64,000 nt of DNA from Candidatus Babeliales bacterium (GCA_963722255.1 CAVRJO010000002.1:64001-128000), one strand, 5' to 3'; numbered from the stretch's first letter, positions 7,542 to 47,884 are shown. Numbers and translations: made by a program. The notes: a model not told the origin generated them from the letters alone.

Positions 7542-7686
7542 CACCTATAACTCCTCGTAATAACTTTAATAATTTTGCAGTAATCTTAATCGTTTATACT
7601 AGGATTGTTATAAGAAAATCTATAGTTACAAAAAATAAATCAGAAAAAGCTTTTAAAGAAACAAAGAAAATCATTAATTATACATG

Positions 7687-16779: not shown

Positions 16780-17367
16780 TTAATATTTAATAATTTTTTC
16801 AGCACACATTTCAGCTGCCAAAGAAAGATACGACCAAATTTTGCTGTAATATTGTTCTTTATCAATTAATATCTCAGCAGAATTACCAATTTTTTCAGCG
16901 ATCATTTTTGGAATATTGTTTAAGTCATCTTTAGTAGTAAGCCCAGCAATATCAAGTACAAATTGGTCTACAGAATGTTCGCGTTCTATAAGGGCATAAC
17001 AATAATCTATAACGAATCGTGTATCAATAAACTTTCGATCTAATCCATAATAAATAACTTTCCATTGTTCAATAGTTTCAAGTTCTATTATTTTTTTTAT
17101 TAAACAATCTTTATTTTTCACAATTAAATTTTCGTCATCATATAAACGAAAGTCAGATTCTTTAATAAAATACCCTTTAAAATACTGATGTAATTTCTCT
17201 TTAAAACAATTAAAATGTGACCAAAAGGTTTGATTAGTTCCCATTTTATTAATTATGTCTTCATTCAAAGAAACATTAATCATGACAGGATCAGTTGTAT
17301 TTTCAATTATTTTTTGATTACAAAAACAACAACGGAATCCAAATTTTTCATCAAATTGTCCATCCAT
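16780..17367 (-). CDS. Putative immunity protein (Cys/His N-domain plus DUF2247-like C-domain)
   Basis: Start overlaps the toxin 3' end; CCFC...HFNC motif; 'WKVIYYGLDRKFID..VIDYC' resembles DUF2247. Confidence 0.6.
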   Translation of the reverse strand: MDGQFDEKFGFRCCFCNQKIIENTTDPVMINVSLNEDIINKMGTNQTFWSHFNCFKEKLHQYFKGYFIKESDFRLYDDENLIVKNKDCLIKKIIELETIEQWKVIYYGLDRKFIDTRFVIDYCYALIEREHSVDQFVLDIAGLTTKDDLNNIPKMIAEKIGNSAEILIDKEQYYSKIWSYLSLAAEMCAEKIIKY

Positions 17368-20300
17368 AATTTTCACCTAAGTTTTTAATTTTTTTCAAAG
17401 CAAGGTCTTTCATCGCACTGACAACTTCTTTGGCTTTTTCATTGATTATCATAATAGCATATTTTTCATTAAATTTCTTAATATATACATCTGCACCATC
17501 CCTTTGTACTCTTCTAAAATCAGGGTTTTGAACAAGCTCTTTTATAATATCTGGAGTAAAACCTCTTTCAATTAATCTTTGTAACCCATGTTCAGTAACA
17601 TTAATAATTTTTTTAATTTCATTAGCTTGATGTTCATAAAGCCCCTTAGCTTCTTCACTTTGGAGCTCGTTTTTTAATTTTTCAAATTTTTCTGGACAGC
17701 TTGGCGGACATTCTGCAATGTTATTTTGCACTGTTTCTTTGGCTGCCAGTCCTTTCTCAGCAATAACTTCAGCAACTGCGGCTTGAGAAAGGATTGCAGT
17801 TGAAACTCCAGGATTAACAACAAGAGGCTCAGAAACAGTTGTTGGCAATGCAGATTCTTTTGCAACTGCCCTAATCGCTTGTTCTGCTGTATTTTCTACA
17901 GCTGCAGGCAGCCTGCTTTCAGCAGCACCTTCAACAAGCGCAGCAAAATTGAAAGAAGTCGATGGTCTAGGATTGTCACATACCTCAACAGTTATTACTT
18001 GAGGCCTATAAGGAATATTTCTAAGTGTTCTGTGATATTTGGCAAAATTAAATGTTTTAAATGCCCCTGCAATTGAAAGATAATCCACAAAACCATCGAT
18101 GGCGATTTGAGCAAACAATTTTTGACGTTGATCTATTGATAGATTATTAAAATGATGGTGAATTCTTGTTAATTCTGTAATTGGCGTTTCACCGGATATC
18201 AATTCATGAGTGGTTTGAACTAATATTTTAACTGCGTTATCAATTTTTCTATATTTTTCAAGAAAAGGTAGATCAGATGATGCTAATGTGCCTATCTCGT
18301 CACATTTTTTGACAATTACTTGAACAGATCGAATCATAGTTGATGCTTGTCTCTTGGGAAATTCACATAATGCACCAAAAATAGCATCAAATCGCCTTTG
18401 TGAATACCCTAATGGATTGGAAACCGTATCAACAATTTCATTGCCAACTGCTTTTGCTAATGATATGGGATTTAGAAACTCAAATAAGTCTTTTATCTCT
18501 CGAGCAAGATCTGTATAGTTTCTTCTATTTAAATCATAAGCAGTTTTAAAAAGCTCTTGTTGCATTTCGCGAACATGAGGCGCAACTTCAATGCCAAGAT
18601 TAGAGGCATTTTCAATAGCTTTAGAAAGGGTTTTATGGAATTCCTCTTGTTCAGCACTTCCTTTAAAATCATTATATTCATTGGGATTAATACCGATCTG
18701 ATTAAGAAAATCATTGGTGCGGTTAGTTTTAATCAAATCCAACGAATCAAGAGAAGGCTCTGCTAGATTAATTGTAGGATCGTAGGCTTCCGGTTCAATA
18801 ACAGTTTCCGTATCAGCAAAAGTTAGATTATTAGTTTTGAACACATTTGGCTTTGAAGCAAATTCATTATCAGGACCTTTTAGGTTTTTTTCTTCCTTTT
18901 CATGTGCCCTTTTATGTTGTTCGCCTCTATTGCCTAATGATTTATTAAATGATTTATTAACAGATGTTTTCTTTTTGTCCTTGTATTTATCTTTATTTAC
19001 TTGCAGCATATTAGTAAATAAATTAACTACGGGATTAAGATATAAATATTTTAGCCTTTCAAATGCTGCTTTATCGCTATTAAGTTCATAACCAATGTGT
19101 TTAAATCGTTCCTGAATTTCTCGTTTTTTCTTTATTTTAGCGATTCTTGCTTTTTTAAGTTGCTTACGCTCTGATTTTAGTTTTTTTGCTTTTTTTTCTT
19201 CTTCTTCTTCATATGCTCTTTTATATCGTTCACTGATACTGTCTAACGATTTATTAACCTGTGCCTTCTTTTTGTCCTTGTATTTATCCTTGAGCAGTTG
19301 TAATCGATTTGTAAATATGTCAAAAAAAGTAATATTGTTATCAATATCAGCTTTTTTTTCCTTTTTGATATTTTTGTAATCATCAGAATAAAGTAACGCT
19401 TGATCTTCTTGAGAAATATATTCATGTTCTAAACTTCTACGCAGAGCAAGTTGTTCAGGATTTAAATCATCACGAATTCTTAATTGGTGCAAAATGGTTT
19501 GCTCATACTCGCTTTTAATGTGATTAAATCGTTCTTCTGTTTGATTAAAATCATTTCTGCCATAACTACTATCATTGACCGCATCATTTAATGCTTCTCT
19601 ATAATGCTCAGGAATTCTATCATCATTTAAAAAATCACCAATATTTTTACACACATTTGATACCCTAGCCGCTTCTTTAATTCTCTTTTCCTCTTCATAA
19701 TTGGGCCAATCCATATTGTCTAATCCCATATGCGATTCTGGCGTATCATCATTATCTCGAGCAGGAGCTAGCTTTCTGACATTCATCTGTTTTGATTGAT
19801 AAGATCTTTGCGTGCTAGTTGGAACTTGTTTTGGCACATTAGTTGAGGGCGAAGAACATATAGTTTCAAATTCACTTTCGTCAATTTCTATAGATTGCGT
19901 TGCCCTTGGAGATGATTCATTCCTTGAATTTGGCAATGAGGAATATTGCATTGTTTGATTGCCACCTGTATAAGGGCGAAGATTTTCGTAGATAGCAGCA
20001 CGAGATACATTACTCGGTACAGCCTTAATAACATTTGATTTTGGAGAATCATTATTGCTAGAATAGGTGCTAGGGCCGCTTAATGAGCCGCTATCACTTT
20101 TTTGTTCATTTATTTGTTTCTTTTCTAACGGTACAGGATTTTTTACAGGAGCAGGAACAGTCTTATTCTTATGATAAGCATCTCTTGCTCGTTTCCCCTG
20201 TCCCGCCTTTCTTTTATTATACTCTATTGCACTTTCTAAAGTTGCTACATCATAGCCAACTGTTCCTCCTGGCCCCGGAGGAAGATTTAAAGGATCTATA

Positions 20301-20746
20301 GAACTTTGCCCTTGCTGTATTGCATTTTTGCAAATATTTTCATGCTTATTGCGAGCGATCAAATTTTTTATAGCCTCATCATGCGATTGAGCATTGGTAG
20401 TTTTCTGAAATAATGAAGGTAAACGATTATCTTCTCTTACAGTTTTTTCATGTGTTTGCGACTCTTGAGAATCATCTTCGGAATATATTTCTAATTGATC
20501 GACAGATTCTAAACCGAGACTCGTCTCTATTATTTGATTTTCAGTCAAAATGGGTCTTACTGTTATTTCAAAATTATCCTTAGAAACCTCATTTACTGTA
20601 ACATCATAAGGAACTCTTGTTTGAGAAGTAAAAAGCTTTTGAAAAAAGCTCTTGTCATCTTTTGGCGTCTCTTCCATTCCAAAGCAAAAAAAATGATAAG
20701 AAATAACAGTTGCTATACAAAAATAGTTATTGAAAAATCGAGGCAT
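17351..20746 (-). CDS. Secreted polymorphic-toxin-like protein with C-terminal RNase-like (DUF4258/BECR-type) domain
   Basis: ATG at 20746 with GGAG RBS; signal peptide; C-terminal 'TEHGLQRLIERGFT...QRDGADVYIK...IIN...EVVSA'; overlapping small downstream gene. Confidence 0.7.
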   Translation of the reverse strand: MPRFFNNYFCIATVISYHFFCFGMEETPKDDKSFFQKLFTSQTRVPYDVTVNEVSKDNFEITVRPILTENQIIETSLGLESVDQLEIYSEDDSQESQTHEKTVREDNRLPSLFQKTTNAQSHDEAIKNLIARNKHENICKNAIQQGQSSIDPLNLPPGPGGTVGYDVATLESAIEYNKRKAGQGKRARDAYHKNKTVPAPVKNPVPLEKKQINEQKSDSGSLSGPSTYSSNNDSPKSNVIKAVPSNVSRAAIYENLRPYTGGNQTMQYSSLPNSRNESSPRATQSIEIDESEFETICSSPSTNVPKQVPTSTQRSYQSKQMNVRKLAPARDNDDTPESHMGLDNMDWPNYEEEKRIKEAARVSNVCKNIGDFLNDDRIPEHYREALNDAVNDSSYGRNDFNQTEERFNHIKSEYEQTILHQLRIRDDLNPEQLALRRSLEHEYISQEDQALLYSDDYKNIKKEKKADIDNNITFFDIFTNRLQLLKDKYKDKKKAQVNKSLDSISERYKRAYEEEEEKKAKKLKSERKQLKKARIAKIKKKREIQERFKHIGYELNSDKAAFERLKYLYLNPVVNLFTNMLQVNKDKYKDKKKTSVNKSFNKSLGNRGEQHKRAHEKEEKNLKGPDNEFASKPNVFKTNNLTFADTETVIEPEAYDPTINLAEPSLDSLDLIKTNRTNDFLNQIGINPNEYNDFKGSAEQEEFHKTLSKAIENASNLGIEVAPHVREMQQELFKTAYDLNRRNYTDLAREIKDLFEFLNPISLAKAVGNEIVDTVSNPLGYSQRRFDAIFGALCEFPKRQASTMIRSVQVIVKKCDEIGTLASSDLPFLEKYRKIDNAVKILVQTTHELISGETPITELTRIHHHFNNLSIDQRQKLFAQIAIDGFVDYLSIAGAFKTFNFAKYHRTLRNIPYRPQVITVEVCDNPRPSTSFNFAALVEGAAESRLPAAVENTAEQAIRAVAKESALPTTVSEPLVVNPGVSTAILSQAAVAEVIAEKGLAAKETVQNNIAECPPSCPEKFEKLKNELQSEEAKGLYEHQANEIKKIINVTEHGLQRLIERGFTPDIIKELVQNPDFRRVQRDGADVYIKKFNEKYAIMIINEKAKEVVSAMKDLALKKIKNLGENYGWTI

Positions 20747-20905
20747 GCAAAAACTCCATTTATAAAACACTAAGAGAAACTTTAATGCTTCATTTATTGT
20801 AAATAAAGCATTATATAATGAACCCCAGAAACTTGACACGATAAAATTAAAAATGTGTTAGTTTTTAATGAACATGAAAGTGAACATTATTATCGGGGAA
20901 TTTTT

Positions 20906-21181
20906 ATGGCAAGAAGATATAAAAAACATAGTAGTTCATTCAAAGCAAAAGTAGCTATAGATGCTATTAGAGAACAAAAAACTTTAAACGAACTAAGTCA
21001 GGAACATAGCATTGCTCCTGCACAAATCTCTATCTGGAAAAGACATGCTGAAGAAAATATGAGCAACCTTTTTGAGGGGAAACAAGAAAAGGACCAACAA
21101 GAGGAAATTGATAGGCTTTATCGAGTAATTGGTCAAATAACGGCAGAGCGTGATTTTTTAGAACGCTCGCTCAATCGATAG
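20906..21181 (+). CDS. IS3 transposase OrfA (HTH)
   Basis: HSSSFKAKVAIDA...QISIWK...IGQITAERDFL. Confidence 0.9.
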   Translation: MARRYKKHSSSFKAKVAIDAIREQKTLNELSQEHSIAPAQISIWKRHAEENMSNLFEGKQEKDQQEEIDRLYRVIGQITAERDFLERSLNR

Positions 21182-22083
21182 ATTTAAAGCAGCGTAAGGA
21201 AATGGTTGAGTGTGTAAATGAAGCAATAGACTTTAAAAGAAAATGTGAACTTTTAGATGTATCGAGAGGATCGATGTATTACAAGCCTAAACCTCAAAAA
21301 AATAATGATGCAATTATTATGAATGAGCTACGTGAAATTTATCAAGAAACGCCTTCCTATGGCTATCGGCGCATGACAGTAGCTTTAAGAGAAAATGGTT
21401 TTTTGGTTAATCATAAAAAAGTCTTTATGTTGCTTAAGATAGCGGGCATCCAGGCCATTTACCCTCGCAAAAAAACAACCATACGAAATCAGGGGCACAA
21501 AGTATTTCCTTATTTATTGCGTGGGTTGCTTATTAATCGACCAAATCAGGTTTGGCAAGTAGATATAACCTATATAAAAATACGGGGTGGTTTTGTATAT
21601 TTGGTTTGCTTAATTGATGTTTTTAGTCGAAAAATCATGGGATGGAAATTGTCAATTTCTCTTGATACAGCGTTATGCATAGAGGCGTTCAATAGTGCTT
21701 TGCAACATGGTATTCCAGAAATTGTTAATAGCGACCAAGGATGTCAATTTACCAGTGCTCTGTGGGTTGAATTAGTGCAACAATATGGAATTCAAATAAG
21801 TATGGATGGTAAAGGAAGATGGGCAGATAATGTTTATATTGAGAGGCTTTGGCGTACGATAAAATATGAGATGATACATTTGCATAGCTTTGATACAGTT
21901 CAACAGGTAAGAGATGCGCTTGCAAGTTACATTGTTTTTTATAATACACGACGTTATCATTCAAAGCTTAATTATCACGCACCAGACGCTATTTTCGCAA
22001 AAAAAATTATTCCATCTAAAAAAGAATTATTCGAAAGTTTTATAGCTTCACAAATTTATAAACTTGGAGCCGCTATGATTTAA
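21154..22083 (+). CDS. IS3 transposase OrfB (DDE), joined to OrfA by -1 frameshift
   Basis: WQVDITYI, NSDQGCQF, DNVYIERLWRTIKYE; the -1 frame opens exactly at slippery T-TTT-TTA (21154-21160). Confidence 0.9.
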   Translation, partial: FFRTLAQSIDLKQRKEMVECVNEAIDFKRKCELLDVSRGSMYYKPKPQKNNDAIIMNELREIYQETPSYGYRRMTVALRENGFLVNHKKVFMLLKIAGIQAIYPRKKTTIRNQGHKVFPYLLRGLLINRPNQVWQVDITYIKIRGGFVYLVCLIDVFSRKIMGWKLSISLDTALCIEAFNSALQHGIPEIVNSDQGCQFTSALWVELVQQYGIQISMDGKGRWADNVYIERLWRTIKYEMIHLHSFDTVQQVRDALASYIVFYNTRRYHSKLNYHAPDAIFAKKIIPSKKELFESFIASQIYKLGAAMI

Positions 22084-36243: not shown

Positions 36244-37836
36244 ATGAATCACCCGCTTAAAAGATTTTTATGCATTGCATTATTTGCTTCCGTAGCAGTG
36301 ATGTATGCGTCTGATGAAGATTGTTCATCAGCAAAGACTTTTGGGCACACCTTTTTTAGTCAACGTCCTCAATGGTCAAATTTAGCACGAAGATTAGTTG
36401 GTGTAACCGAATTTCTTGTACCCTGTGATATAGATTGCCTAAATGGATTTCTAGCATTTACACCAGAATATACTCGTTCATTTGATCGTGACGAAATTGG
36501 AAAATTCCTCTTCTACAACGGCACTAATAAAATGACGTTTGGTGCTGCTGGAGCAACCGGTGTCGATGTTTTTGCACGAAACTTTTTCCTCAATGATGAT
36601 TTTAATGGCATCTTGACAGCGCTTCCTCGCGTTGAAAATGCCCTATTGGATATTCAATTTAGATTAAACTTAGATGAATGGATTTGTGGACTCTATTTTG
36701 ATATTCATGCACCTATAAACTGGACTCGTTGGAGTGTAAATTTTTCTGAAAATATTGTCTCTATAGGCACAGATATTGCAGCATTTGCTTTAGGAAATAC
36801 CACGGCATTTCCTTCGCCTGTTACGAGTATTTTAGCAGCATATAATGGTCAACAATTAGACACCATAGACTTCCCTGATCTTAAGCAAGTATTGCAGTTT
36901 GGTAGAGTCGATACGTCCGATGCTATGGATAGTCCAACTCCTGAAGCAAGCGGACAACAAACAAAAACACGCTTAGCTGATGTTGAAACCGCGCTTGGAT
37001 ATAACTTCCTTTGTGATGAATCGTATCACTTAGGTGCCGATTTTCGTGTAGTATTTCCTGCAAGCAATCGACCTAATGCTATGTTCTTATTTGAACCCGT
37101 AGCTGGTAATGGAAAACATTATGAAATTGGTGCCGGTGTTTCAGCACATTATGAATTTTGGAACAACTGCTGCGATTCATCTTTCACCGTATGGGCGGAA
37201 ACGAATTTATATACCGTATTAAAAGGTCGTCAACGTCGTATCTTTGATCTTAAGAATGCCGATGGTACACAAAATATTGGAAGTAGTCGTCTTTTAATTA
37301 AAAGATTTTCAGGCGCACCAGCCGCCCCTTTATTGCAAGAGATTCTTTATGGACCAAATGTGCTAGCCTTAAGTTGCAAAGTAAGAAATGCCTTGCATGC
37401 TGAAGCTGCAGTTCTTTTTGATTATTATCGTTGTGGTTTCACACTGGATACCGGTTATAATTTGTGGACTCGGACAGCAGATAAAATTAGCGACATCGAA
37501 ACTATTTTACCAAACACCTTCGGACTTGCCGGTCAAACATTAGGAACCGGTGGAGCTACAGCAAATAATACCGGCAGCACAGCAAAGATTAATGGTACAG
37601 GCGGAACAGCCGATCCAACAAATGTTTATATAAGCAATGATTCACTCTTTATTGACTCTGCGGCTCATCCACGAGCAATTTCACACAAATTTTTTGCACA
37701 TGCAAGTTATGCGTGGGAAAATTGTGACTATACACCATTTTTAGGAATCGGTGGTGAAGCTGAATTTTCGGGCAATAAAAACTTTGCCCTTGACCAGTGG
37801 GGAATTTGGATTAAAGGAGGCTTTGCTTTCTCATAA
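36244..37836 (+). CDS. Cys-rich putative outer-membrane beta-barrel protein (paralog A)
   Basis: AAGGAG RBS, signal peptide, alternating beta-strand pattern, FLFEPVAGNGKH motif, C-terminal WGIWIKGGFAFS. Confidence 0.7.
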   Translation: MNHPLKRFLCIALFASVAVMYASDEDCSSAKTFGHTFFSQRPQWSNLARRLVGVTEFLVPCDIDCLNGFLAFTPEYTRSFDRDEIGKFLFYNGTNKMTFGAAGATGVDVFARNFFLNDDFNGILTALPRVENALLDIQFRLNLDEWICGLYFDIHAPINWTRWSVNFSENIVSIGTDIAAFALGNTTAFPSPVTSILAAYNGQQLDTIDFPDLKQVLQFGRVDTSDAMDSPTPEASGQQTKTRLADVETALGYNFLCDESYHLGADFRVVFPASNRPNAMFLFEPVAGNGKHYEIGAGVSAHYEFWNNCCDSSFTVWAETNLYTVLKGRQRRIFDLKNADGTQNIGSSRLLIKRFSGAPAAPLLQEILYGPNVLALSCKVRNALHAEAAVLFDYYRCGFTLDTGYNLWTRTADKISDIETILPNTFGLAGQTLGTGGATANNTGSTAKINGTGGTADPTNVYISNDSLFIDSAAHPRAISHKFFAHASYAWENCDYTPFLGIGGEAEFSGNKNFALDQWGIWIKGGFAFS

Positions 37837-37868
37837 AAAACAAAAAAAACAAACATATACTTAGTACT

Positions 37869-37894
37869 AAAGGCTCATGATATCATGAGCCTTT
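37869..37894. terminator. Bidirectional terminator (perfect 26-bp palindrome)
   Basis: AAAGGCTCATGATATCATGAGCCTTT between convergent genes. Confidence 0.75.
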
Positions 37895-37918
37895 TTACAT
37901 AGATCCAATAAGGATTTA

Positions 37919-38875
37919 TTATTTTTTGATATTTTTAGAAGCTTTTATAAAATAAAAGTTCAATGCCTGCAGTAGAACTTTTGCTTGAGCATATACAAGG
38001 AGCTCAGGTTTATAAGAAGAATCAGATTTACCAATAATAAATTTTACAGATTTTGTTTCCATAGTCGGATATAAGAAATAGAATGCAGTAACAATTTCCT
38101 GAGCTAAATCTATTTGATTTTGTGATAATGCTTTAGACCCCGGAACATAACGCCATAGTGAACTCTTTGATTGAAAGCTTAGTTCCTCTAACATATTTAT
38201 AAATACTCTAATTCCACTTACAAGAGTTGGGCTTTTAACATCCCCACCAAGAGTTTTTTTTATATTTTTATCATCAATAATAAATTTAAGAATTTCAATT
38301 GGACTCAGTTTATTTTTTGTACTTTTTAATTTTTTAAATTGATTAAAGAAACTATTTGGATCAAAGCTAACTCCTGTTAAACTTTTATACTGAGTAAGAA
38401 CGTCACTAACTGACCTATTTTTCCATTCTTCTGGATAATTATCTTTAGAAATTTGTGGAAGTTTTTTAAAATATTCGCTATATAGAGCAAATATTTTATT
38501 TATTGCTTTATCTATTTGAGCTAGATCTTCAGTTTTGTATAAGTTTTTTGAATAATTTGGCATCATATTTAATGTGTCAATGATGGTTTTCTGAGCTGCT
38601 CTATATGATTTTTGCAGTAAAGGCTGTTTTTTCAAAAAGCCACTCACAAACCAGCTATCAACACATGAGGTTAGATCTAGCCAAGGCTTCATCTCTTTAT
38701 CAGTAAGACTTCTATCTAATCTAAATGCTTCTTTAAAAGCCTCATTCCCTTTACTTAGGATAAAACTATCAAGGTCTTTGCCATCCATATTATTAATCGC
38801 ATCCATAGTTTTTTCATCACAGACACCATGTAATGAATAGAACAAACAACTTATTATCAATAATCTTTTCTTCAT
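37919..38875 (-). CDS. Secreted helical orphan protein (family member 1)
   Basis: Signal peptide ...LHG-VCD; closest to 42145-43143. Confidence 0.8.
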   Translation of the reverse strand: MKKRLLIISCLFYSLHGVCDEKTMDAINNMDGKDLDSFILSKGNEAFKEAFRLDRSLTDKEMKPWLDLTSCVDSWFVSGFLKKQPLLQKSYRAAQKTIIDTLNMMPNYSKNLYKTEDLAQIDKAINKIFALYSEYFKKLPQISKDNYPEEWKNRSVSDVLTQYKSLTGVSFDPNSFFNQFKKLKSTKNKLSPIEILKFIIDDKNIKKTLGGDVKSPTLVSGIRVFINMLEELSFQSKSSLWRYVPGSKALSQNQIDLAQEIVTAFYFLYPTMETKSVKFIIGKSDSSYKPELLVYAQAKVLLQALNFYFIKASKNIKK

Positions 38876-38882
38876 TTTTACC

Positions 38883-39782
38883 TCATTTTTCTAATAAATA
38901 TTGTATGATGGTATATAAACAATTTGATTCAGCATTAATAACAAGCCAAAATTTACTCTTAGATTGTGGAAGCTTAAGATCCATAATTGAAGTAATTGTA
39001 TCAGGATAAGTCCCAATTATTGCTGCTAAAATTTCTTCACTCATGTCTATTTTATTTTGCAATGCACCAGTACCAATACCCAAAAACTTCTTCTTAATAT
39101 CTTCCTTAAATCGATAAATCAAACGCTCAAGCGTATCAGCAAACTGAACAATTTTTTGCTGTGTTATTTTTTCATCTCTATTTTGACCAATAAAACTTTG
39201 ATTTTTCAAAAAATTAATAATTCTATCCTGTGGTAATGAACTAGTTGATGGAAGCTTGTTATAAGAAATATACTGTTTTTTAGTTGCAGCAAAATTCTTA
39301 AAAAACAGATCATAATCTTTCAAAATTTCATTTGCTCTAGAAGGAACCCCTTTTTTCCATTCCTCAGGTTCATTAATATTCTCAATTGCCTTAAGTAAAG
39401 AATCTCTGTGTAATGCTAATAAATTTTCCTTATATCCTAACAAAACACGATTATTCTTTATAATACCTTTATCAACAATATTTTTAATTGCACCACTAAT
39501 TACTGTTAAATTTTTTAAAAGAATTTTGTTATTTTGTTCACTTGATGGCACAGATAAATTGTTATTCACACATGCAATAAAATCAAAAAATGATTCCAAT
39601 TTTTCTTTGAAATTCTGAGACTCTATTGGATGTTTGAAAATCTCAAAATGCTTATTTATTATCGATGTATATAACTCATAAGGGTTTAGTCTATTAATTA
39701 CAGCAACGTCCTTAAACGTACATTCTCCATGAAGAGCAAATGTTCCCAACAAACTACAACATTTTATTATTTTTTTTATCAT
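38883..39782 (-). CDS. Secreted helical orphan protein (member 2)
   Basis: Signal peptide ...LHG-ECT; EPEEWK motif. Confidence 0.8.
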   Translation of the reverse strand: MIKKIIKCCSLLGTFALHGECTFKDVAVINRLNPYELYTSIINKHFEIFKHPIESQNFKEKLESFFDFIACVNNNLSVPSSEQNNKILLKNLTVISGAIKNIVDKGIIKNNRVLLGYKENLLALHRDSLLKAIENINEPEEWKKGVPSRANEILKDYDLFFKNFAATKKQYISYNKLPSTSSLPQDRIINFLKNQSFIGQNRDEKITQQKIVQFADTLERLIYRFKEDIKKKFLGIGTGALQNKIDMSEEILAAIIGTYPDTITSIMDLKLPQSKSKFWLVINAESNCLYTIIQYLLEK

Positions 39783-39878
39783 TTCTTCCCCTGCTATGGC
39801 TTATATTTTTCAAATAGTTTGTACAATTTCCTTTTTTACTACCAATAATTTTGTGAAATCTCTCTTTACACTTAACAA

Positions 39879-40898
39879 TTACTGGCCACCTTTTTTTATT
39901 TTCTCATATACAATAAGAAACGCCTCTGTTTCACTGAAAATAATTACATCAACAGGATCAGCATCATATATTTTCTTGTAGAAATCAGTTGGAATTTTCT
40001 TATATAGATCAGTTATAAGGATAGCTTCTAGTATATTACGAGCATCTAAACTTAATTTTTCAAGATTTTCTATTCTTTGCCTTATGGCTTTTTTATTGAA
40101 TGTAAAAACACTCGATAGTTTTTTTTCAAGATTATCAATTTCCCGAGCAGCATTAATTAGAAAGTCATAATAGTATTTAAATATACCATATGCAACATTA
40201 AACCGTTCTTGTTCCGTAAAGCTCCTCAATTGATTAACTGATGCTTTTTGAAGCATTGAAAAATTAGCGACATCTGAATAATTTTCCGGACTCAAGATAC
40301 CGTTGCTATTAACAACTATATTATTTTGATCTATAAATCTCCTATATAACATAAAGCGAAGCTCATACCCACCCTCTTTATAAAATTTATCAAAATTGAA
40401 GTTACGATTTTTTTTAATACTCTCTTTAACATCTTTAGCAAAATCTAAAATCATTATATTTGCATAAGCTTGTTTATTGTAATCCTGTAAACGGGTTATT
40501 TTTTTTTGAATATGAGGTGCCTGTGCGAGTCTTCCATGAAGTTCTTTAATATTATTCTTAATAATGTCATTAAACTCATTCATGAAATTAATATAATCAT
40601 CTATATCAATATTAACTATATCTTCTTCATTTTTTTTGAGATGCTCATGAGCACAATCCAACAACAATTCAAAATTATTAAAAGCATGCGTATCAATTTT
40701 GTCTTTATTATTAATTACATTATCGGTATAAACCTTATTAATTTCTGAAAAAAATAATGTAGGAATACTTTTACTTTTAATTGAATTATTTATTTTTGTT
40801 TGAAACTCTTTTGTACATTTCGATTCAATAAATTTAAATCCATTAATTAAAAAAATAACACCTAGCAATAATAAACAATTTTTTATATACTTTTTCAT
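39879..40898 (-). CDS. Secreted helical orphan protein (member 3)
   Basis: Signal peptide, SKCT; closest to 43190-44281. Confidence 0.8.
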   Translation of the reverse strand: MKKYIKNCLLLLGVIFLINGFKFIESKCTKEFQTKINNSIKSKSIPTLFFSEINKVYTDNVINNKDKIDTHAFNNFELLLDCAHEHLKKNEEDIVNIDIDDYINFMNEFNDIIKNNIKELHGRLAQAPHIQKKITRLQDYNKQAYANIMILDFAKDVKESIKKNRNFNFDKFYKEGGYELRFMLYRRFIDQNNIVVNSNGILSPENYSDVANFSMLQKASVNQLRSFTEQERFNVAYGIFKYYYDFLINAAREIDNLEKKLSSVFTFNKKAIRQRIENLEKLSLDARNILEAILITDLYKKIPTDFYKKIYDADPVDVIIFSETEAFLIVYEKIKKGGQ

Positions 40899-40918
40899 AG
40901 CAATAAATCCTTTAACAA

Positions 40919-41935
40919 TTAGTTTTGACTTTGCAAATCTACAATATTTTTGCTTAAAGCATTAAGCATTTCTAGTAAAGCAAAAAATTCACCAATCAGA
41001 ATATTCTTTACCGGATTTTTCTCCACGTACAATTTTGCATGATCCAAATCAGAAATTATCTGATATTGCTTATTTAATGCACGTATAATCTCTGTACCAT
41101 CTTTTATCATCTTCTTCTCAGCCCCACTAAGAAACCATTGCTTATTCATGACAGCATTAAATATTTGAAGTCGATTAACAAATTTTGTAGCAGCTCTTCG
41201 CTCAATATCAAATTCATTTTCTTCTGAAGGAATCATTTCCAATAGTTTTAAAAAATTTACTATCTCTATATCCTGAGGAATAGGTTTGGTAAAAATAGTT
41301 GTTTTTGCCTCATTATAAACTTCAAAAAATTTTACTAAATTATTGGATAACTTTTTGTTTTCTGCTTTTTGTTCATTATTAGGCCATTCTTTTGGAATTG
41401 ATAGTGGATCAAGAAAAAAACGAATGTGATCATATATTTTCGTTTTATATGCAGTTAATTGAGAAAGGATTCCTTGTTTTTTGGCAATCTTAGAATTTTT
41501 TGCATACTCTGCTCTGAAAAGAACCAAATTAAGCTTAAAATAATTAAATATACTTTCATTTAATGCAATGTAATCTAAATAATCCTTCGAAATTTTTTTT
41601 CTAGCAACCTGTTCTCGAATATTATTATGAGCGCAACTAATTAATGAATCATATTTACTTTGTAAATCTTGAAACTCTTTCTTAAAGTCACTTACAAAAT
41701 TTTCATCTTTCCCTTTAAGATTTGTACTTTTTTCAAATTCAATTAACTGATTTCCAAGATATGGGTTTGCAATATATGTTTTTGTTGCTGCGTCTATAAT
41801 CAAAGCAAAGAGATTGGCGGGGTTTTCCTCAATTTTTTTCTCAATCATGGAGAATTCAGTATTATTACACTTTTGACCCCCACTTAGAAATTGAAAATAT
41901 AAACATAGAACTACAATAACGCTGTTCTTCACCAT
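40919..41935 (-). CDS. Secreted helical orphan protein (member 4)
   Basis: MVKNSVIVVLCLYFQFLSG signal; QKCN, LISCAH, IPKEWP. Confidence 0.8.
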   Translation of the reverse strand: MVKNSVIVVLCLYFQFLSGGQKCNNTEFSMIEKKIEENPANLFALIIDAATKTYIANPYLGNQLIEFEKSTNLKGKDENFVSDFKKEFQDLQSKYDSLISCAHNNIREQVARKKISKDYLDYIALNESIFNYFKLNLVLFRAEYAKNSKIAKKQGILSQLTAYKTKIYDHIRFFLDPLSIPKEWPNNEQKAENKKLSNNLVKFFEVYNEAKTTIFTKPIPQDIEIVNFLKLLEMIPSEENEFDIERRAATKFVNRLQIFNAVMNKQWFLSGAEKKMIKDGTEIIRALNKQYQIISDLDHAKLYVEKNPVKNILIGEFFALLEMLNALSKNIVDLQSQN

Positions 41936-42144
41936 TTCCCCTTTTTCCCACCGCATACTCTTCATGGCTTATCCTCTGTATGAATAAATCTTGCTATCAT
42001 TATTACTAATAATAACAAATAATTGTTTTGAAAATCAATATTTATTCAAATTATAAATAAATAATTCCTTCCATGAAATAATCATTCAAAATTCAAGTTA
42101 TTGGCTTCTTAAGCCATCAAACACCTAAAAAATGATTTTTTTAT

Positions 42145-43143
42145 TTATAAACTTTCTGCTTTTCTCAAATAAGCTCGTAAGGTAATCAACAAAATTTGCG
42201 CAGAAGTCCATAATAAAAAAGGAGGCTTTATAGCTTGGGATGTTGTCAATTTAATTATACTCCTGCTTGTATAGGTGTCACTAGCAGGATACAATGAGTA
42301 CAAATCGTTAACTATTGTTTGTGCGACCAAGATCTGATCCTTAGAGAGGGGCTTTTTTGAAAAAAATCCTTTAGATTGATTTAGTAACTCCTCCAATAAG
42401 TTAATCACCAAAGTCGCTTTTTGTTGTTGCATTTCATAGGTTTCATCTCCATCTAAAATAGAAGATGCGGTAAGAGCAATAACTATATTTCTCTCTTTAG
42501 ATTTATCAGTATTAGTTTTAAGTATATTAAGATAGGTATTAAAAAACTCATTCAGAGAAAAATCTATATTTTTGGACTCTCTTTTATAGGCTTCAAGAGC
42601 TTCTTGTGCTGATTTATGTGGGAATCTTTTTACAAGAGGCAGTAAATATTTGTTATAATTATCCAAATAAACAGCTGTTACTGATTTTATGTTATGACCT
42701 ACTAAATTTATAAATAGTCCTTTTTTTAATGGTTTTGTATTAATAATTTCAGAAAAATTTCCTATCATATCTATATTAGAAACCTCTAAAAGTTTATTAA
42801 CAGCCCCTTCATACTCTGAGGCTTTTTTAACATTGAATTTAGACAATTGAATCCAGCTTTTAAAACTTAATAAAAAATATTCCCATGGCATTAGATCATC
42901 TTCCTTTAAGACTGGGATTATTGGATCATCACTCAAAAGATTTTTTAAGCTAGTTGAAGCATCTTTAGTACCGCCAAAAACTTTAAATCCAATATTTTGA
43001 ACATAATCATAGAGCTGCTGATCATTCTTATTTTTTATTACCTGAATATAATTTTCATTATTTTCTTGGAGTGCAAATTGCATGTTAAAAATACCAACGA
43101 AAATATAAAAAACTATTAGATAATTTAGAACTTTCATAAACAA
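42145..43143 (-). CDS. Secreted helical orphan protein (member 5)
   Basis: Signal peptide; INLLEELLNQSK...LYP...KP..L shared with member 1. Confidence 0.8.
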   Translation of the reverse strand: MFMKVLNYLIVFYIFVGIFNMQFALQENNENYIQVIKNKNDQQLYDYVQNIGFKVFGGTKDASTSLKNLLSDDPIIPVLKEDDLMPWEYFLLSFKSWIQLSKFNVKKASEYEGAVNKLLEVSNIDMIGNFSEIINTKPLKKGLFINLVGHNIKSVTAVYLDNYNKYLLPLVKRFPHKSAQEALEAYKRESKNIDFSLNEFFNTYLNILKTNTDKSKERNIVIALTASSILDGDETYEMQQQKATLVINLLEELLNQSKGFFSKKPLSKDQILVAQTIVNDLYSLYPASDTYTSRSIIKLTTSQAIKPPFLLWTSAQILLITLRAYLRKAESL

Positions 43144-43189
43144 TCCTTTTATTTTGTATTAATCAACTTATATTTTATTATGATAAAAA

Positions 43190-44281
43190 TTATTCATACC
43201 CTTTATTTGTATACGCATTAACTAAACTCAAAAAATAGTTCCGCACTCGATTATAGATTCGGCCTAACGCTTTCGTTTCAGCTAAAATAAGCCTATAAAC
43301 AGGAGTTGCTTCTTCTAACTTTTTTGCAAAAGCTATAGGCGGTCGTTCATACAAATTAGTAATAAAGATCGCTTCAAGCATCTGATTTGCATAACTAATA
43401 AATCTGTTCAACTCATCTATTTTTGCTTGTATCTTTTTTTTATTAAATCTGAAAAATCTTTTAAAAGAAGTAGGTTCGGAAAGCCTTTTTTGTAAGGCTG
43501 CACGATACAAAGCTGCCTTCTCTTTAAATTCATAAAGATACATAAATGTATCAAGCGCCTGCTGAGAAATAGTTTGTGAACTTTGGGCAAACTCCTTTTC
43601 ACTCTGAAGTTTCTCAAACTGATTTCGAGCAAAAGTAGCTACTTTTTCATAACTTCTTGGATCCAATTTTGAGTCTTTATCAATTATTAGATCAGGAAAA
43701 ATTGACTGATATGTATCAAAAAATTCTTGATACTGCTTATCTTTGTAAAATCTTTCAAAATTAAAACTAAGAGCGCTGTTATCTGGTTTTTGCGTATAAA
43801 TAAGTATATCTATTAAAGCTTGTTTACGAAATTCTTTGAGTTTTTCACTATAATCGGAAAATATAATAAAATCATTTGAGATATGATCAAGGCCAAACTT
43901 TCTTCGTTTAGTATCATAAAGATCTTCGATGAACTTCTTTAAAAACTTAACTGCTTTTACACTTGTCTCGGTAAAATCATCACTCTTTATATGCACAAGA
44001 GCATTTTTGTTTTCTTCTATCAATGCATGACTGCAATCAAATAAGTTAATAAGTTTATAGTAATCACTATAATTAATCACATTATTCGTAATTGCTTTAT
44101 CCGTATACACTTTTTCTAGTTCATCTACAAAAAGTTGTGCAACTGAATTATGTGCAAAAGATTCTTCAAGCCTTTTTTGCATATCCGGTGTACAAACAGC
44201 ATACATAGAATTATCACCAAATGCGTACAAGAGCATAACGATGAATAATATAATGCTTTTAATAGAATAACTCTTCATCAA
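43190..44281 (-). CDS. Secreted helical orphan protein (member 6)
   Basis: Signal peptide, AVCT; KVYTD, FNFERFYK and LEAIFITNLY shared with member 3. Confidence 0.8.
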   Translation of the reverse strand: MMKSYSIKSIILFIVMLLYAFGDNSMYAVCTPDMQKRLEESFAHNSVAQLFVDELEKVYTDKAITNNVINYSDYYKLINLFDCSHALIEENKNALVHIKSDDFTETSVKAVKFLKKFIEDLYDTKRRKFGLDHISNDFIIFSDYSEKLKEFRKQALIDILIYTQKPDNSALSFNFERFYKDKQYQEFFDTYQSIFPDLIIDKDSKLDPRSYEKVATFARNQFEKLQSEKEFAQSSQTISQQALDTFMYLYEFKEKAALYRAALQKRLSEPTSFKRFFRFNKKKIQAKIDELNRFISYANQMLEAIFITNLYERPPIAFAKKLEEATPVYRLILAETKALGRIYNRVRNYFLSLVNAYTNKGYE

Positions 44282-44510
44282 TCTACCTTTTATCTTAAAT
44301 TATATTGGTTGTACCTATTTTTTAGTCACATCCCTGCATGCATTATTACTGATTATAGCAAAAAGATATGTATAATCTCAATAATAACTCAGATTGACAA
44401 TATTTTTAATACAACTCTACACCATTCTCCCATTGCATCAGATAAAAAAAAATATAGACTAAGCTCTAAACAAAAGGGCGTATCTATAATCTTTTAAAAA
44501 AGGGTATTCA

Positions 44511-46028
44511 ATGAAGCACAGAGTTCCAAAACTGTATTATTTAGTCTTTCTTACAACACTATTTTCATCATCGCTAATTGCTGATAATGAAGGCGATGAC
44601 CACCGAGATACCTTTGGCATCAGTTTTTTTCATGCTCGCTCGATTGGATCAAATAAAGCTCGCGAAAGCGCCGGTTTGGCAAATCTTATTACTTGGGGTT
44701 ATGATGAATGTTCTCATGGACTATTCTGGGCAACAGGAGAATATTCGAGCTCATTCAATCAACATGGACTAGGCCAGTATCTCTTTTTTAATGGTAGCAA
44801 TACCATGCTAACAGGAACAGCAGCGGGACCAGGTGTCGATATATTTAGTGAAAACTTCTTATTAAATGATAATTTTTCAAGTGCAATAACCGCACGTCCC
44901 AATGTTACCTATGGACTTATTGATCTCAATCTATTCTATTCATTGGACTTTTTATGCAACGGTCTCTATTTTCTTGCTCATGTTCCCTATGTACAAACAT
45001 CATGGTCGGTTGACTTTAAAGAAACAATCAGCTTTACAGGAACTATAATTTCAGCAAATGATCTTGGGAACCCAACAGATACTCCGGCACCTTTTACTTC
45101 ATTGATTGCTGCTTGGAATGGTCAGGCAACCTTTTTTGATGTTAAAGAACCATTACGTTTTGGGCGTGTTTGTGGCAAACGCAAAAAAGCTCGTCTTGCT
45201 GATGTTGAACTTGCCTTAGGCTACATCATTCTTAACGATGAATGTAACTATTTTAGTATTAATGTACGCGGTATCATACCCACCGGTAATACACCAAAAG
45301 GTAAATTTCTGTTTGAACCTATTGTAGGTAATGGTCACTACGGAGAAGTGGGTGCAGGAATTTTAGGAAACTTCTTTATCTGGGAAGGTTGTTCTGATGA
45401 TTATTTAACCATTTTTGTTAATGCAAACATTTATACTATGCTCAGTTCACGCCAACAACGTACCTTTGACCTCACCGCCAATGGACCCGGCAGCCGTTAT
45501 CTTCTTTTCAAAAGATTTGTTAATAATCTGTATGCGGGTGAAATTGTACGTGGGCCAAATATATTAACCCTTCCTATTCATACCAAAAATGCTGTTCACG
45601 GTGATTGCGTTCTTATGGTTGAATACACTCGGTGCGGTTTTATTGCTGATGGTGGCTATAATCTTTGGGGAAGAACTCGTGATCATATCGAACTTGCCGG
45701 TAAAATTCCTGCTAATACCTATGGTGTCGCCGGTTTGAGTGGAACAGGAGTAAATGCTAATTTAACGGCAAGCCAAACCTTACTTAATGGAACAAATGCA
45801 AACCTAATCGATGCAACTCCAATATTTATATCAAATGCTAACATTAATATAAAATCTGCTGCACACCCCGGAAGCTTTTCCCATGGTTTCTTTGTTCATC
45901 TTCAATATATATGGGATAAAAGATATGCTAAACCCTTTGTAGGATTTGGTTCAGAGGTAGAGTTTTCAGGGACCAATAAATCTCTCTTATTATGGCATAT
46001 TTGGGCTAAAACAGGTATCTCTTTTTAG
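44511..46028 (+). CDS. Putative outer-membrane beta-barrel protein (paralog B)
   Basis: Colinear with 36244-37836 (TFG..FF, F.NG.N.M, GVD.F..NF.LND.F, RLADVE.ALGY, FLFEP..GNG, SAAHP); C-terminal F. Confidence 0.72.
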   Translation: MKHRVPKLYYLVFLTTLFSSSLIADNEGDDHRDTFGISFFHARSIGSNKARESAGLANLITWGYDECSHGLFWATGEYSSSFNQHGLGQYLFFNGSNTMLTGTAAGPGVDIFSENFLLNDNFSSAITARPNVTYGLIDLNLFYSLDFLCNGLYFLAHVPYVQTSWSVDFKETISFTGTIISANDLGNPTDTPAPFTSLIAAWNGQATFFDVKEPLRFGRVCGKRKKARLADVELALGYIILNDECNYFSINVRGIIPTGNTPKGKFLFEPIVGNGHYGEVGAGILGNFFIWEGCSDDYLTIFVNANIYTMLSSRQQRTFDLTANGPGSRYLLFKRFVNNLYAGEIVRGPNILTLPIHTKNAVHGDCVLMVEYTRCGFIADGGYNLWGRTRDHIELAGKIPANTYGVAGLSGTGVNANLTASQTLLNGTNANLIDATPIFISNANINIKSAAHPGSFSHGFFVHLQYIWDKRYAKPFVGFGSEVEFSGTNKSLLLWHIWAKTGISF

Positions 46029-46222: not shown

Positions 46223-46519
46223 ATGAAAAAGGTATTATTAGCTACACTTTTAACTATCGTTGGTTTAGCAGTTGTTTCTGATGCATTTGCATGGAGAAAC
46301 GGACGCTGTGGTCAAAGAAGCTGCGCACCTCGTTGCGAAACTTCTTGCAGAAAAGAATGCAACCCTGTTGTTAACATTACTCGTACAGAAGAAAAACCAT
46401 GTGGTCAAGCACCTTGCTGCTTAACAGCTGTTCAAGTTCCTGCGAACTTGGTTAAACACGTTGAGTACACCTGGGAATGTCCAACTGGTTGTACGGTTCA
46501 AACCGGCGACCAATACTAA
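46223..46519 (+). CDS. Small secreted cysteine-rich protein (10 Cys in about 75 mature residues)
   Basis: TAAGGAG RBS, signal peptide ending AFA, CxxxC spacing, strong terminator downstream. Confidence 0.85.
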   Translation: MKKVLLATLLTIVGLAVVSDAFAWRNGRCGQRSCAPRCETSCRKECNPVVNITRTEEKPCGQAPCCLTAVQVPANLVKHVEYTWECPTGCTVQTGDQY

Positions 46520-47095: not shown

Positions 47096-47884
47096 ATGGT
47101 AACTCTCAAGAAATTCTATTTTATTTTTTTTATGGGGATATTCCTTCCTACTCTTATCATAACTGCCTTTAAAGGCTTACACATAACCACGACAGCATCA
47201 AACAGTACCATTCAACCCAGTCAATCTAGCTCACAAAAAAATCAATGGACTCTATGGCTACAAGATCAAGAAAAACAGATTTGGGATGAAATGACAACAA
47301 CGACAAAACTGACACAAGAGCGCTGCAGTTCATTAAAAAATGAATGGTATCAAGAATATTTACAAGGCGAAAATGAGTTGCTTACTACTGAAAGCAAACC
47401 CTCTGCTATTTCTAAAAAAACTCATGATACTATTAATGCAATAATGGCCGATTTTGGTATTTCAACAAAAGACCTCCCCTTACTTGCGTGGAAAGATAAT
47501 TCAGCAGCAGGAACAACTGATAGCAAACTCTTGGTTAATGAAAGAACCTTTAATAAATTATCTCATCAGGCACAAAAATTTGTTATTGCACATGAAATAC
47601 AGCATTATTTGCATAAAGATACTTCAACACGTTATGTTATTGAACGTTTTTACAAACCGGCAAAAGAGTTACCACAAGATCATCCAATTAATAAATTATA
47701 TAGATTTCAAGAAATTCGCGCCGATGTTCAGGCAGCACTCAAAGGACAAGAATATCAACAAGGCTATATCTCTTTTATTGAAACTATAACAAAAAAAGGT
47801 GAAAACAAAGGCATTACCCATCCTAAAAATTCAGTTCGCCTTTCAATGGGTAAAAAACTTATTAACAATCTTCCCATAGCATAA
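47096..47884 (+). CDS. Exported M48-like zinc metallopeptidase
   Basis: N-terminal hydrophobic segment; IAHEIQH, QEIRAD, THP. Confidence 0.75.
   Translation: MVTLKKFYFIFFMGIFLPTLIITAFKGLHITTTASNSTIQPSQSSSQKNQWTLWLQDQEKQIWDEMTTTTKLTQERCSSLKNEWYQEYLQGENELLTTESKPSAISKKTHDTINAIMADFGISTKDLPLLAWKDNSAAGTTDSKLLVNERTFNKLSHQAQKFVIAHEIQHYLHKDTSTRYVIERFYKPAKELPQDHPINKLYRFQEIRADVQAALKGQEYQQGYISFIETITKKGENKGITHPKNSVRLSMGKKLINNLPIA

Follow-up and report, generated by a model that had tools for sequence, protein, structure and literature searches.

Layout and composition of the locus

Two paralogous outer-membrane protein (OMP) genes of a Candidatus Babeliales bacterium (Dependentiae, TM6), OMP-A and OMP-B, enclose an array of six genes on the opposite strand, which we number g1 to g6 from the OMP-A side (Table 1). 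The locus lies in a 64,000-nucleotide (nt) stretch of DNA (the window; C2:64001-128000) from a 1.62-Mb genome that is assembled in two contigs, has a GC content of 0.34, and is 93% complete (source genome, G000). Here, we describe the array as a fast-evolving family of probably exported proteins, one of which is predicted to adopt the fold of the PRONE domain of plant RopGEFs, and we weigh what such proteins may do between two outer-membrane barrels.

On the map of open reading frames (ORFs), the gene order is OMP-A (+), g1 to g6 (-), a divergent spacer of 229 bp, and OMP-B (+), which is the arrangement that a first-pass annotation of this DNA had reported, with a spacer of 230 bp. The array ORFs span positions 37919-44281, encode proteins of 299 to 363 amino acids (aa), and are separated by gaps of 7, 96, 20, 179, and 46 bp. 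The spacer holds the region's best promoter-like site on the minus strand (44381-44352; 11 of 12 positions, with TG). Promoter-like sites (62 found versus 54.3 expected) and terminators (5 versus 4.8) occur at the level of shuffled sequences, so that these counts do not establish an operon structure. Among public sequencing runs, none, whether of DNA or RNA, is listed for the locus.

The impression that the array is visibly AT-richer than its flanking OMP genes was confirmed by a GC profile in 500-nt windows (0.228 to 0.304 in the array, 0.378 to 0.400 in the OMP genes, and 0.30 to 0.39 in the flanks) and by ranking the genome's 747 ORFs of 250 aa or more (mean GC, 0.349; standard deviation, 0.027). 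Five of the six array genes are within the lowest 8 of these ORFs and all six within the lowest 27, with g3 as the lowest of all (0.259). The shift falls mostly on codon positions 1 and 2 (GC2, 0.215 to 0.301), and GC3 is slightly low (0.188 to 0.234; genome mean, 0.250). The AT-richness thus reflects an amino acid composition rich in Lys, Asn, Ile, Phe, and Tyr.

Table 1. Features of the locus (window coordinates) and family members fused to a J domain (coordinates of their own loci)
Feature	Position	Strand	Description
OMP-A	36244-37836	+	530 aa; signal peptide; 11 Cys; predicted 12-stranded-type outer-membrane beta-barrel with long loops
g1	37919-38875	-	318 aa; probably exported; all-alpha, PRONE-like predicted fold; Cys19/Cys71 pair
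g2	38883-39782	-	299 aa; family member; 7-bp gap to g1
g3	39879-40898	-	339 aa; divergent subfamily B; both Cys aligned; GC 0.259
g4	40919-41965	-	348 aa; family member; true start possibly the internal Met at residue 11
g5	42145-43143	-	332 aa; both conserved Cys lost; TTG start, ATG two codons on (43137)
g6	43190-44281	-	363 aa; subfamily B; first gene of the array; TTG start, ATG directly after (44278)
Divergent spacer	44282-44510	.	229 bp between g6 and OMP-B
OMP-B	44511-46028	+	505 aa; OMP-A paralogue; N-terminal signal; 7 Cys; C terminus ...GISF
Small Cys-rich protein	46223-46519	+	98 aa; signal peptide; 10 Cys; directly 3' of OMP-B
J-fused family members	L050:6371-7726 (G014), L055:6525-7886 (G121)		451-453 aa; N-terminal extension

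The array family, its export and its predicted fold

Sequence comparison identifies the six array genes as one very divergent family. Pairwise BLASTP connects only g1 with g5 (28% identity; E = 4e-13), g1 with g2 (22%; E = 1e-9), and g3 with g6 (29%; E = 7e-36), and it finds no significant partner for g4 among the array genes. Profile comparisons with hhalign draw these pieces together: a profile of g1, g2, g5, and their relatives matches g4 at 95.3% and the sister-species gene G001a at 97.5%, while G001a is matched by g4 at 89.8% and by the g3/g6 profile at 43.6% (E = 2.4e-4). The array subgroups are bridged in this way by three genes that the sister species (G001) carries at the same site. 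Because later profiles contained the six genes, leave-clade-out tests with hidden Markov models (HMMs) were run, and they recovered g1 (E = 5e-24), g2 (E = 9e-40), and g4 (E = 5e-29). When its own clade was left out, g5 was missed, and it joins the family via g1. Both g3 and g6 scored at E > 10, and their clade-mates P0159 and P0158 were detected at E = 2e-7 and 9e-6, respectively; the membership of g3 and g6 is transitive and moderately supported.

The six genes had been called related, orphan, and diversified. Relatedness holds for all of them at the level of profiles, transitively so for g3 and g6, and in direct BLASTP comparison only for the three pairs given above. The term orphan is apt in that the array proteins belong to no family in Pfam, NCBIfam, PHROGs, or PADLOC and inapt in that relatives do exist, and the description as a diversified family bearing export signals is accurate. 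A weak match of phrog_24268 to g3 (E = 5e-4) and matches of PADLOC Cas1 models to g6 (E = 2e-4 and 1e-3, over 45 to 81 residues) were judged compositional and set aside.

The family is visible only by profile search. Queried with g1 as a single sequence, a collection of 5.8 billion proteins returned g1 itself and nothing else, and the genomes of 40 relatives yielded no match outside the source genome. Out of 1.84 billion cluster representatives, the profile of a ten-sequence alignment matched 84 at E ≤ 0.001, of which 57 reached E ≤ 1e-10, and almost all of these proteins measure 260 to 420 aa; a search for longer, fused relatives returned none at E ≤ 0.001, which is weak evidence. The ten aligned sequences share a common plan, with a signal-like N terminus, a cysteine right after it, a second cysteine about 50 residues on, a P-x-x-W motif, and a conserved C-terminal helix. 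Both cysteines are present in nine of the ten, g5 having neither. Among 96 family sequences, 57 carry both cysteines, 30 carry neither, and 9 carry a single one; this covariation in the alignment agrees with a disulfide, subject to the reservation that states are shared among relatives.

Divergence between the source genome and its sister species marks the array as a site of fast evolution and turnover. Flanking orthologues are 45 to 79% identical, the best array pair (g2 and the sister-species copy G001b) reaches 37% over 157 residues, and counterparts of g5 and g6 are undetectable at the sister-species site. In a quick maximum-likelihood tree of the 96 family sequences, the six array genes do not form one clade, and each is closer to sequences from other organisms, most of them metagenomic, than to the rest of the array, which indicates that the paralogues are old. 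Groupings with a Shimodaira-Hasegawa-like approximate likelihood ratio test (SH-aLRT) value of 100 unite g2 with P0128 and P0152, g6 with P0148, and g5 with P0138, and place g3 and g6 within a clade of eight.

It is quite probable that the array proteins are exported, as the first-pass annotation had proposed in calling them secreted. All six begin with a short basic stretch and an N-terminal hydrophobic segment that can be read from the sequence; the 11-residue hydropathy maximum near the N terminus is 1.7 to 3.4, and later 19-residue windows never exceed 1.41, with no segment there that resembles a membrane span. The N-terminal screen, a crude one based on hydropathy and not a trained signal-peptide predictor, was passed by 88 of the 96 family sequences. 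The genome also encodes two secretins (open frames of 801 and 945 aa) and two T2SS-E/PilB-type ATPases, so that a route beyond the periplasm exists in principle. A family member of genome G014 (P0163) carries a DnaJ domain between the signal and the family domain, with the HPD motif intact (PF00226; E = 1.8e-7; 31.6 bits versus a cut-off of 27.8 bits). In its orthologue from G121, which is 72% identical, the HPD motif is lost and the J extension has degenerated. A J domain needs Hsp70 and ATP, neither of which is known in the bacterial periplasm. This fusion is the only hint at the sequence level that the family acts in a host compartment. In Chromulinavorax destructans, a cultured member of the Dependentiae, signal peptides are found in 44% of the coding sequences, secreted ORFans and ankyrin proteins were proposed as effectors, and outer-membrane vesicles appear early in infection, according to the accessible part of the report (PMC6561590).

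The array protein g1 is predicted to have the three-dimensional fold of PRONE. Its template-free AlphaFold2 model, built on 66 family sequences, has a predicted local distance difference test (pLDDT) score of 91.3 and a predicted template-modeling (pTM) score of 0.88 (range of pLDDT over five models, 89.5 to 91.3) and is all-alpha, with about 14 helices. In a Foldseek search of the PDB, the top six matches are all PRONE structures (2ntx, 2wbl, and 2nty; E = 1.2e-3 to 1.2e-2; template-modeling [TM] scores, 0.40 to 0.54), and the next match has an E of 0.06 and a TM score of 0.18. VIA-align, run against 48,161 representative chains, ranked PRONE8 first in a wide search (2ntx_A; Z = 16.2; root mean square deviation [rmsd], 4.2 over 253 residues), with a runner-up at Z = 8.8. 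In a second look, the program returned 2ntx_B (Z = 18.3; rmsd, 3.9 over 259 of 287 residues), 2wbl_B (Z = 16.6), and 2nty_B (Z = 16.1), followed by a chain at 7.8. According to its guidance, helical models reach Z values of about 13 to 14 by chance arrangement, a level that the PRONE match exceeds while standing alone. Overall, the PRONE alignments have rmsd values of 3.9 to 4.7 over 251 to 259 residues, and they span model residues 9-318 and chain residues 3-354, that is, both whole domains, at a sequence identity of 7 to 8%. The ESM Atlas gave no usable match to g1, and the best match among the viral structures of BFVD had an E of 0.11.

The g1 model thus shares its all-alpha fold with PRONE8 of Arabidopsis RopGEF8 (2ntx, 2nty, and 2wbl; PF03759) over nearly the whole domain, which measures about 300 residues in the array family and about 360 in PRONE. 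Unlike PRONE, the array family is bacterial, has a Sec signal, in most cases together with a Cys pair near the N terminus, and consists of a stand-alone domain. PRONE has a beta-hairpin arm and a WW loop, whereas DSSP assigns no beta-hairpin to the g1 model. To our knowledge, the sole known activity of the PRONE fold is nucleotide exchange on Rac-like ROPs. In the parts of the literature available, PRONE is the catalytic domain of plant RopGEFs, which are exchange factors for Rac-like ROP GTPases (PMC5499878), and it is described as plant specific (PMC7565977, PMC5499878); within the same limits, a literature search for PRONE in bacteria or among effectors yielded no bacterial PRONE-like protein.

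Flanking barrels and history of the site

The paralogy of OMP-A and OMP-B noted at the outset is supported by 41% identity over their full length (BLASTP; E = 1e-126), and neither protein matches a Pfam or NCBIfam family at E ≤ 1. An AlphaFold2 model of OMP-A (35 homologues; pLDDT, 88.6; pTM, 0.85) is nearly all beta. Foldseek matches it in the PDB to FapF (E = 1.5e-11), then to the COG4313 channel, CymA, and FadL, and VIA-align ranks the COG4313 channel (4rl8; Z = 23.9; 258 of 267 residues at an rmsd of 2.7) together with FapF (5o65; Z = 22.8) above 12-stranded autotransporter barrels (Z = 17 to 19) and KdgM/NanC porins (Z = 17 to 18). As modeled, the core of OMP-A is a 12-stranded-type outer-membrane barrel to which about 240 loop residues are added, in agreement with the earlier assignment of these proteins to the outer membrane. 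This core superposes on both the COG4313 channel and FapF with rmsd values of 2.7 to 2.8 over 258 residues, but OMP-A is about twice as long as these channels (530 aa), with large loops, 11 cysteines, and no Pfam match. Unlike FapF, it has no fap-type operon nearby.

A search with OMP-A found 119 homologues at E ≤ 0.001, seven of which have a named organism and are annotated as hypothetical throughout; six come from metagenome-assembled genomes of Candidatus Dependentiae or Babeliales and one is labelled Legionellaceae. The OMP family has four matches in the source genome and 3 to 13 in each of 14 further Babeliales genomes, where tandem runs of four or five are frequent. Between the source genome and the sister species, OMP-A shows the strongest conservation in the neighborhood (79% identity), ahead of the Mur ligase (71%), GltX (69%), OMP-B (67%), and BacA (45%). 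From fold, copy number, and conservation, the OMPs are probably housekeeping channels, likely major porin-like proteins. A literature search on outer-membrane proteins of the Dependentiae gave, in the text available, nothing on this OMP family.

The gene for the 98-aa Cys-rich protein directly follows OMP-B in all five genomes examined from this bacterial family (G000 to G004), and the pairing persists where OMP-A and OMP-B are separated. Its product is 69, 46, 44, and 30% identical to the copies of G001, G003, G004, and G002, respectively. OMP-B and the 98-aa protein may form a conserved pair of a barrel and a small Cys-rich partner. In chlamydiae, MOMP is cross-linked with OmcA and OmcB in a cysteine-rich outer-membrane complex. 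The likeness, a Cys-containing barrel encoded beside a small Cys-rich exported protein, concerns the flanks of the array. A weak second copy of the 98-aa protein is found at G000:C2:255083-255202. Downstream of the pair, a gene for a 262-aa M48-like protein is kept in G000, G001, and G002; in the window (47096-47884, +), its match to M48 peptidases is weak and partial (E = 1.9e-6 over about 40 residues).

The distribution of the array family was counted with the 66-sequence profile over 261 Dependentiae genomes. Matches at E ≤ 1e-4 occur in 30 of them, 14 with full-length copies (E < 1e-30) and 16 with weak partial matches that are possibly not true members. There are seven full-length copies in G000, five in G001, two in G123, and a single one each in G003, G004, G124, G059, G236, G014, G121, G119, G058, G220, and G147. 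An eighth, very divergent copy is likely in G000, which gives copy numbers of eight there, five in G001, and one or two elsewhere. Only in G000 and G001, 2 of the 14 genomes, is a family gene adjacent to the OMP family. In G220, the two lie 5 kb apart with four ORFs between, and the distance grows to 24 to 31 kb in G123, G014, and G121, 47 kb in G059, and 84 to 107 kb in G003 and G004. The family gene is on a contig other than that of the OMPs in G124, G236, G119, G058, and G147, where the contigs of G119 and G147, only 3.7 and 8 kb long, are too short to exclude linkage. Family members adjoin rpmE-prfA in G000, G001, G003, and G004, which are all four genomes of the bacterial family that have the gene family, and we infer that this is its older site. 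In genus g13, the family gene has an mnmA-like gene on one side and a gene of 550 aa on the other. The two copies beside rpmE-prfA in the source genome are at C1:144943-145899 (L053:4943-5899) and C1:146814-147893; one of them is missed by the family HMM at E ≤ 1e-3 and groups with the same-site copy of G001 (SH-aLRT, 90). Alongside the family genes of this site, G000, G001, and G004 each have a small ORF of 75 to 115 aa with a signal peptide.

Related genomes indicate how the array came to lie between the OMP genes. In G002, of the same bacterial family and another genus, the order is ftsK-bacA-OMP-A-OMP-B-Cys-rich-M48-like, with the OMP genes 170 to 185 bp apart and no insert; the gap thus holds no family gene in G002, three in G001, and six in G000. 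In G003, G004, and the metagenome contig L059, OMP-A keeps bacA-ftsK and is then followed by an unrelated gene of 322 to 365 aa with a signal peptide, and in G003 and G004 the OMP-B/Cys-rich pair lies 160 to 175 kb from OMP-A. A metagenome scan for OMP-A gave three loci, of which L059 shows the arrangement of the G003/G004 genus, without the array family, and a scan of genome contigs returned G003 and G004 and no others. The 322- to 365-aa genes (L011:5715-6683 in G003, L013:5638-6735 in G004, and L059:8375-9472) are convergent to OMP-A and occupy the place of g1. They are mutually orthologous (hhalign, 100%); considered as possible distant members of the array family, they were treated as unrelated to it, since no hhalign probability against any family group in the comparison exceeds 0.3%. 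The simplest history would be a tandem OMP duplicate, OMP-A and OMP-B having most likely arisen as a tandem pair of the multi-copy barrel family, whose junction later became a site of insertion or rearrangement. The helical family would have colonized the gap in this genus only, with three copies in the sister species and six here. We hold this architecture and history with considerable confidence.

Possible functions of the array proteins and surroundings of the locus

Our preferred reading, adopted tentatively and at somewhat less than even weight, is an expanded family of exported effectors, possibly acting on host Rho/Rac GTPases, that is lodged between two housekeeping channel genes. That the proteins are host-directed effectors at all seems to us evenly balanced; that they act on Rho-family GTPases, with guanine nucleotide exchange factor (GEF) activity suggested by the predicted fold, is possible and rather doubtful. 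Each array protein would combine a Sec-type signal with an all-alpha PRONE-fold domain, which the N-terminal Cys pair probably staples in most copies. After Sec export, the proteins would leave by type II/secretin machinery or in outer-membrane vesicles, bind Rho/Rac-type small GTPases of the protist host, and bring about nucleotide exchange or another form of hijacking, and diversification of the paralogues may provide different target or host specificities. Of these steps, export beyond the periplasm, host targeting, and GTPase or GEF activity are those that we infer, whereas the analysis itself shows the anatomy of the locus, the barrel fold, the unity and distribution of the family, the synteny history, the PRONE-like predicted fold, and the presence of secretins.

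Bacterial effectors that mimic GEFs include SopE/SopE2, the WxxxE family members Map and IpgB, Legionella RalF with its Sec7 domain, and DrrA/SidM. They follow the logic proposed here, in that an intracellular bacterium exports a protein that switches on small GTPases of the host. RalF likewise has a eukaryote-type GEF fold; for the array proteins, the activity is putative. These effectors use type III or IV systems and are without Sec signals, whereas the array proteins carry a Sec signal. We know of no bacterial GEF effector with a PRONE fold. The secreted ORFan and ankyrin repertoire of Chromulinavorax offers another parallel, with signal-bearing proteins proposed to act on the host and lineage-specific expansions in both cases, and the accessible text of that paper describes neither the array family nor a PRONE-like fold (PMC6561590).

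Several observations weigh against an effector that acts on GTPases. The PRONE model PF03759 matches none of the 66 family members at E ≤ 1 and nothing in the whole genome at E ≤ 10, and the family profile retrieves no PRONE from the PDB sequences, only low-complexity helical matches and designed proteins. There being no sequence link, the likeness in fold could be of great age or a product of convergence, and it does not demonstrate that the function is shared as well. The fold model is that of g1, and the links of g3 and g6 to the family are transitive. Conserved columns are mostly those of the aromatic and aliphatic core, and no catalytic motif stands out; in the numbering of g1, the positions conserved in the family are W65, Y91, P148, W151, Y163, E230, Y269, P270, and D288. 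The Sec signal and the Cys pair fit a periplasmic or surface protein equally well, the array has envelope genes for neighbors (uppP/bacA, the OMPs, and the Cys-rich protein), and nearly half of the proteins in the phylum carry signals, if the Chromulinavorax figure, from the part of the report at hand, is taken as a guide (PMC6561590).

Were the family to act in the bacterium's own envelope, as disulfide-stabilized periplasmic or surface helical proteins that build or remodel a cysteine-rich outer membrane, the Sec signal and the covarying Cys pair would find an explanation, as would a neighborhood of uppP/bacA, two barrels that contain cysteines, and a small exported protein with 10 Cys, and most family-bearing genomes keep one or two copies, as for housekeeping genes. 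We regard this as doubtful, since the family is patchy (30 of 261 genomes, full length in 14), evolves far faster than the adjoining envelope genes, has no synteny with envelope genes outside this genus, and lacks both cysteines in 30 of 96 members, and the J-domain fusion makes little sense in the periplasm. That fusion, and all the evidence from export, expansion, and fast evolution, applies as well if the array proteins are host-directed effectors in which the PRONE-like fold is a mere scaffold, for instance for binding another host protein or a lipid; the 7 to 8% identity to PRONE, the missing profile match, and the absence of a conserved polar motif are likewise in keeping with it. We nevertheless consider a mere scaffold rather unlikely: among solved folds, the model resembles PRONE alone, and by a wide margin, and the only PRONE activity known, as far as the available part of the source goes, is exchange on Rac-like ROPs (PMC5499878).

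The flanking barrels invite two further explanations, both raised by the first-pass annotation. If the six proteins were cargo or surface partners of the barrels, in a dedicated secretion or display system, one would expect what is seen in G000 and G001, where the genes are adjacent and divergently transcribed; the closest solved barrel folds include FapF, a polypeptide secretion channel, and the family gene of G220 lies near an OMP gene. The synteny comparison speaks against such a partnership, with adjacency in 2 of 14 genomes and a distance of 5 kb in 1 of 14, so that homologues of the array come close to never being linked to the OMP family. The OMP pair of G002 stands without an insert, the OMP-A orthologues of G003 and G004 have an unrelated neighbor, and OMP-A evolves slowest at the locus while its supposed cargo evolves fastest. 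Channels of the COG4313 and KdgM types are also as good a match to the barrel as FapF is, and with 3 to 13 OMP-family matches per genome, often in tandem, chance proximity is to be expected. Co-folding of OMP-A (residues 30 to 530) with g1 (residues 19 to 318), a single pairing, returned no answer (score, 0.00; mark, 0.32) and weighs on neither side. We judge a dedicated system quite improbable. A tandem, diversified family that adjoins surface proteins also recalls a cassette locus or one for antigenic variation, where the directly oriented OMP paralogues or the array genes themselves recombine to gain or lose cassettes. Gene-conversion loci of the vls, pilS, and msp2/p44 type have DNA segments in common between an expression site and silent, truncated cassettes. 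Neither idea is supported by comparison of the DNA. The longest exact match between the OMP genes is 12 nt, and blastn aligns no part of them; array genes share at most 14 nt of exact DNA in any pair, so that a substrate for homologous recombination is lacking. Repeats in the locus are 18 to 33 nt long at 70 to 89% identity, as expected of AT-rich DNA. All six array genes are full length, each with its own start and signal and none a truncated cassette, and the paralogues are old. Such a locus is extremely unlikely here.

The exported-effector reading matters because the Dependentiae are widespread, almost uncultured parasites of protists, whose handling of their hosts is largely unknown and most of whose exported proteins have no recognizable family. 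The predicted fold link to the RopGEF domain turns the array into a concrete biochemical hypothesis, exchange on host Rac-like GTPases; if it is true, the array proteins would be a new structural class of bacterial GEF effectors and the first non-plant relative of PRONE. A bolder proposal, which we put forward as speculative and consider unlikely, is that this is the first PRONE-fold family outside plants, comprising exported PRONE-type exchange factors that take over host Rho/Rac signaling and share an origin with the plant RopGEF domain by ancient transfer from an intracellular bacterium to an early archaeplastid-like host or in the opposite direction. If the shared origin were true, the unexplained origin of PRONE would become testable. 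The locus also points to a probable major family of channel-forming OMPs in the phylum, with a conserved, partner-like small Cys-rich protein, and it illustrates that striking gene neighborhoods in these genomes can be recent accidents at the level of a genus and not functional operons.

The locus is flanked upstream by mraW, a Mur ligase gene, ftsK, and bacA/uppP and downstream by the gene for the M48-like protein, acpP, fabD, gltX, and plsX. As these flanks are core genes, the locus is chromosomal, with no obvious mobile island. Farther out in the window are ankyrin-repeat proteins and an IS3-type transposase; the insertion sequence (20855-22083, +), about 14 kb from the array, consists of a 108-aa ORF followed by a 293-aa transposase (HTH_21, rve). 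A scan of the window with Rfam found a single tRNA. Two large ORFs, of 1,240 aa (10148-13870, -) and 1,162 aa (17351-20839, -), have no Pfam match at E ≤ 1e-5. A giant ORF (3-7544, -), which exceeds 2,514 aa, runs off the start of the window; short ORFs on its opposite strand recur at steps of 774 nt (5047, 5821, and 6595), a spacing that points to an internal repeat about 258 aa in length.

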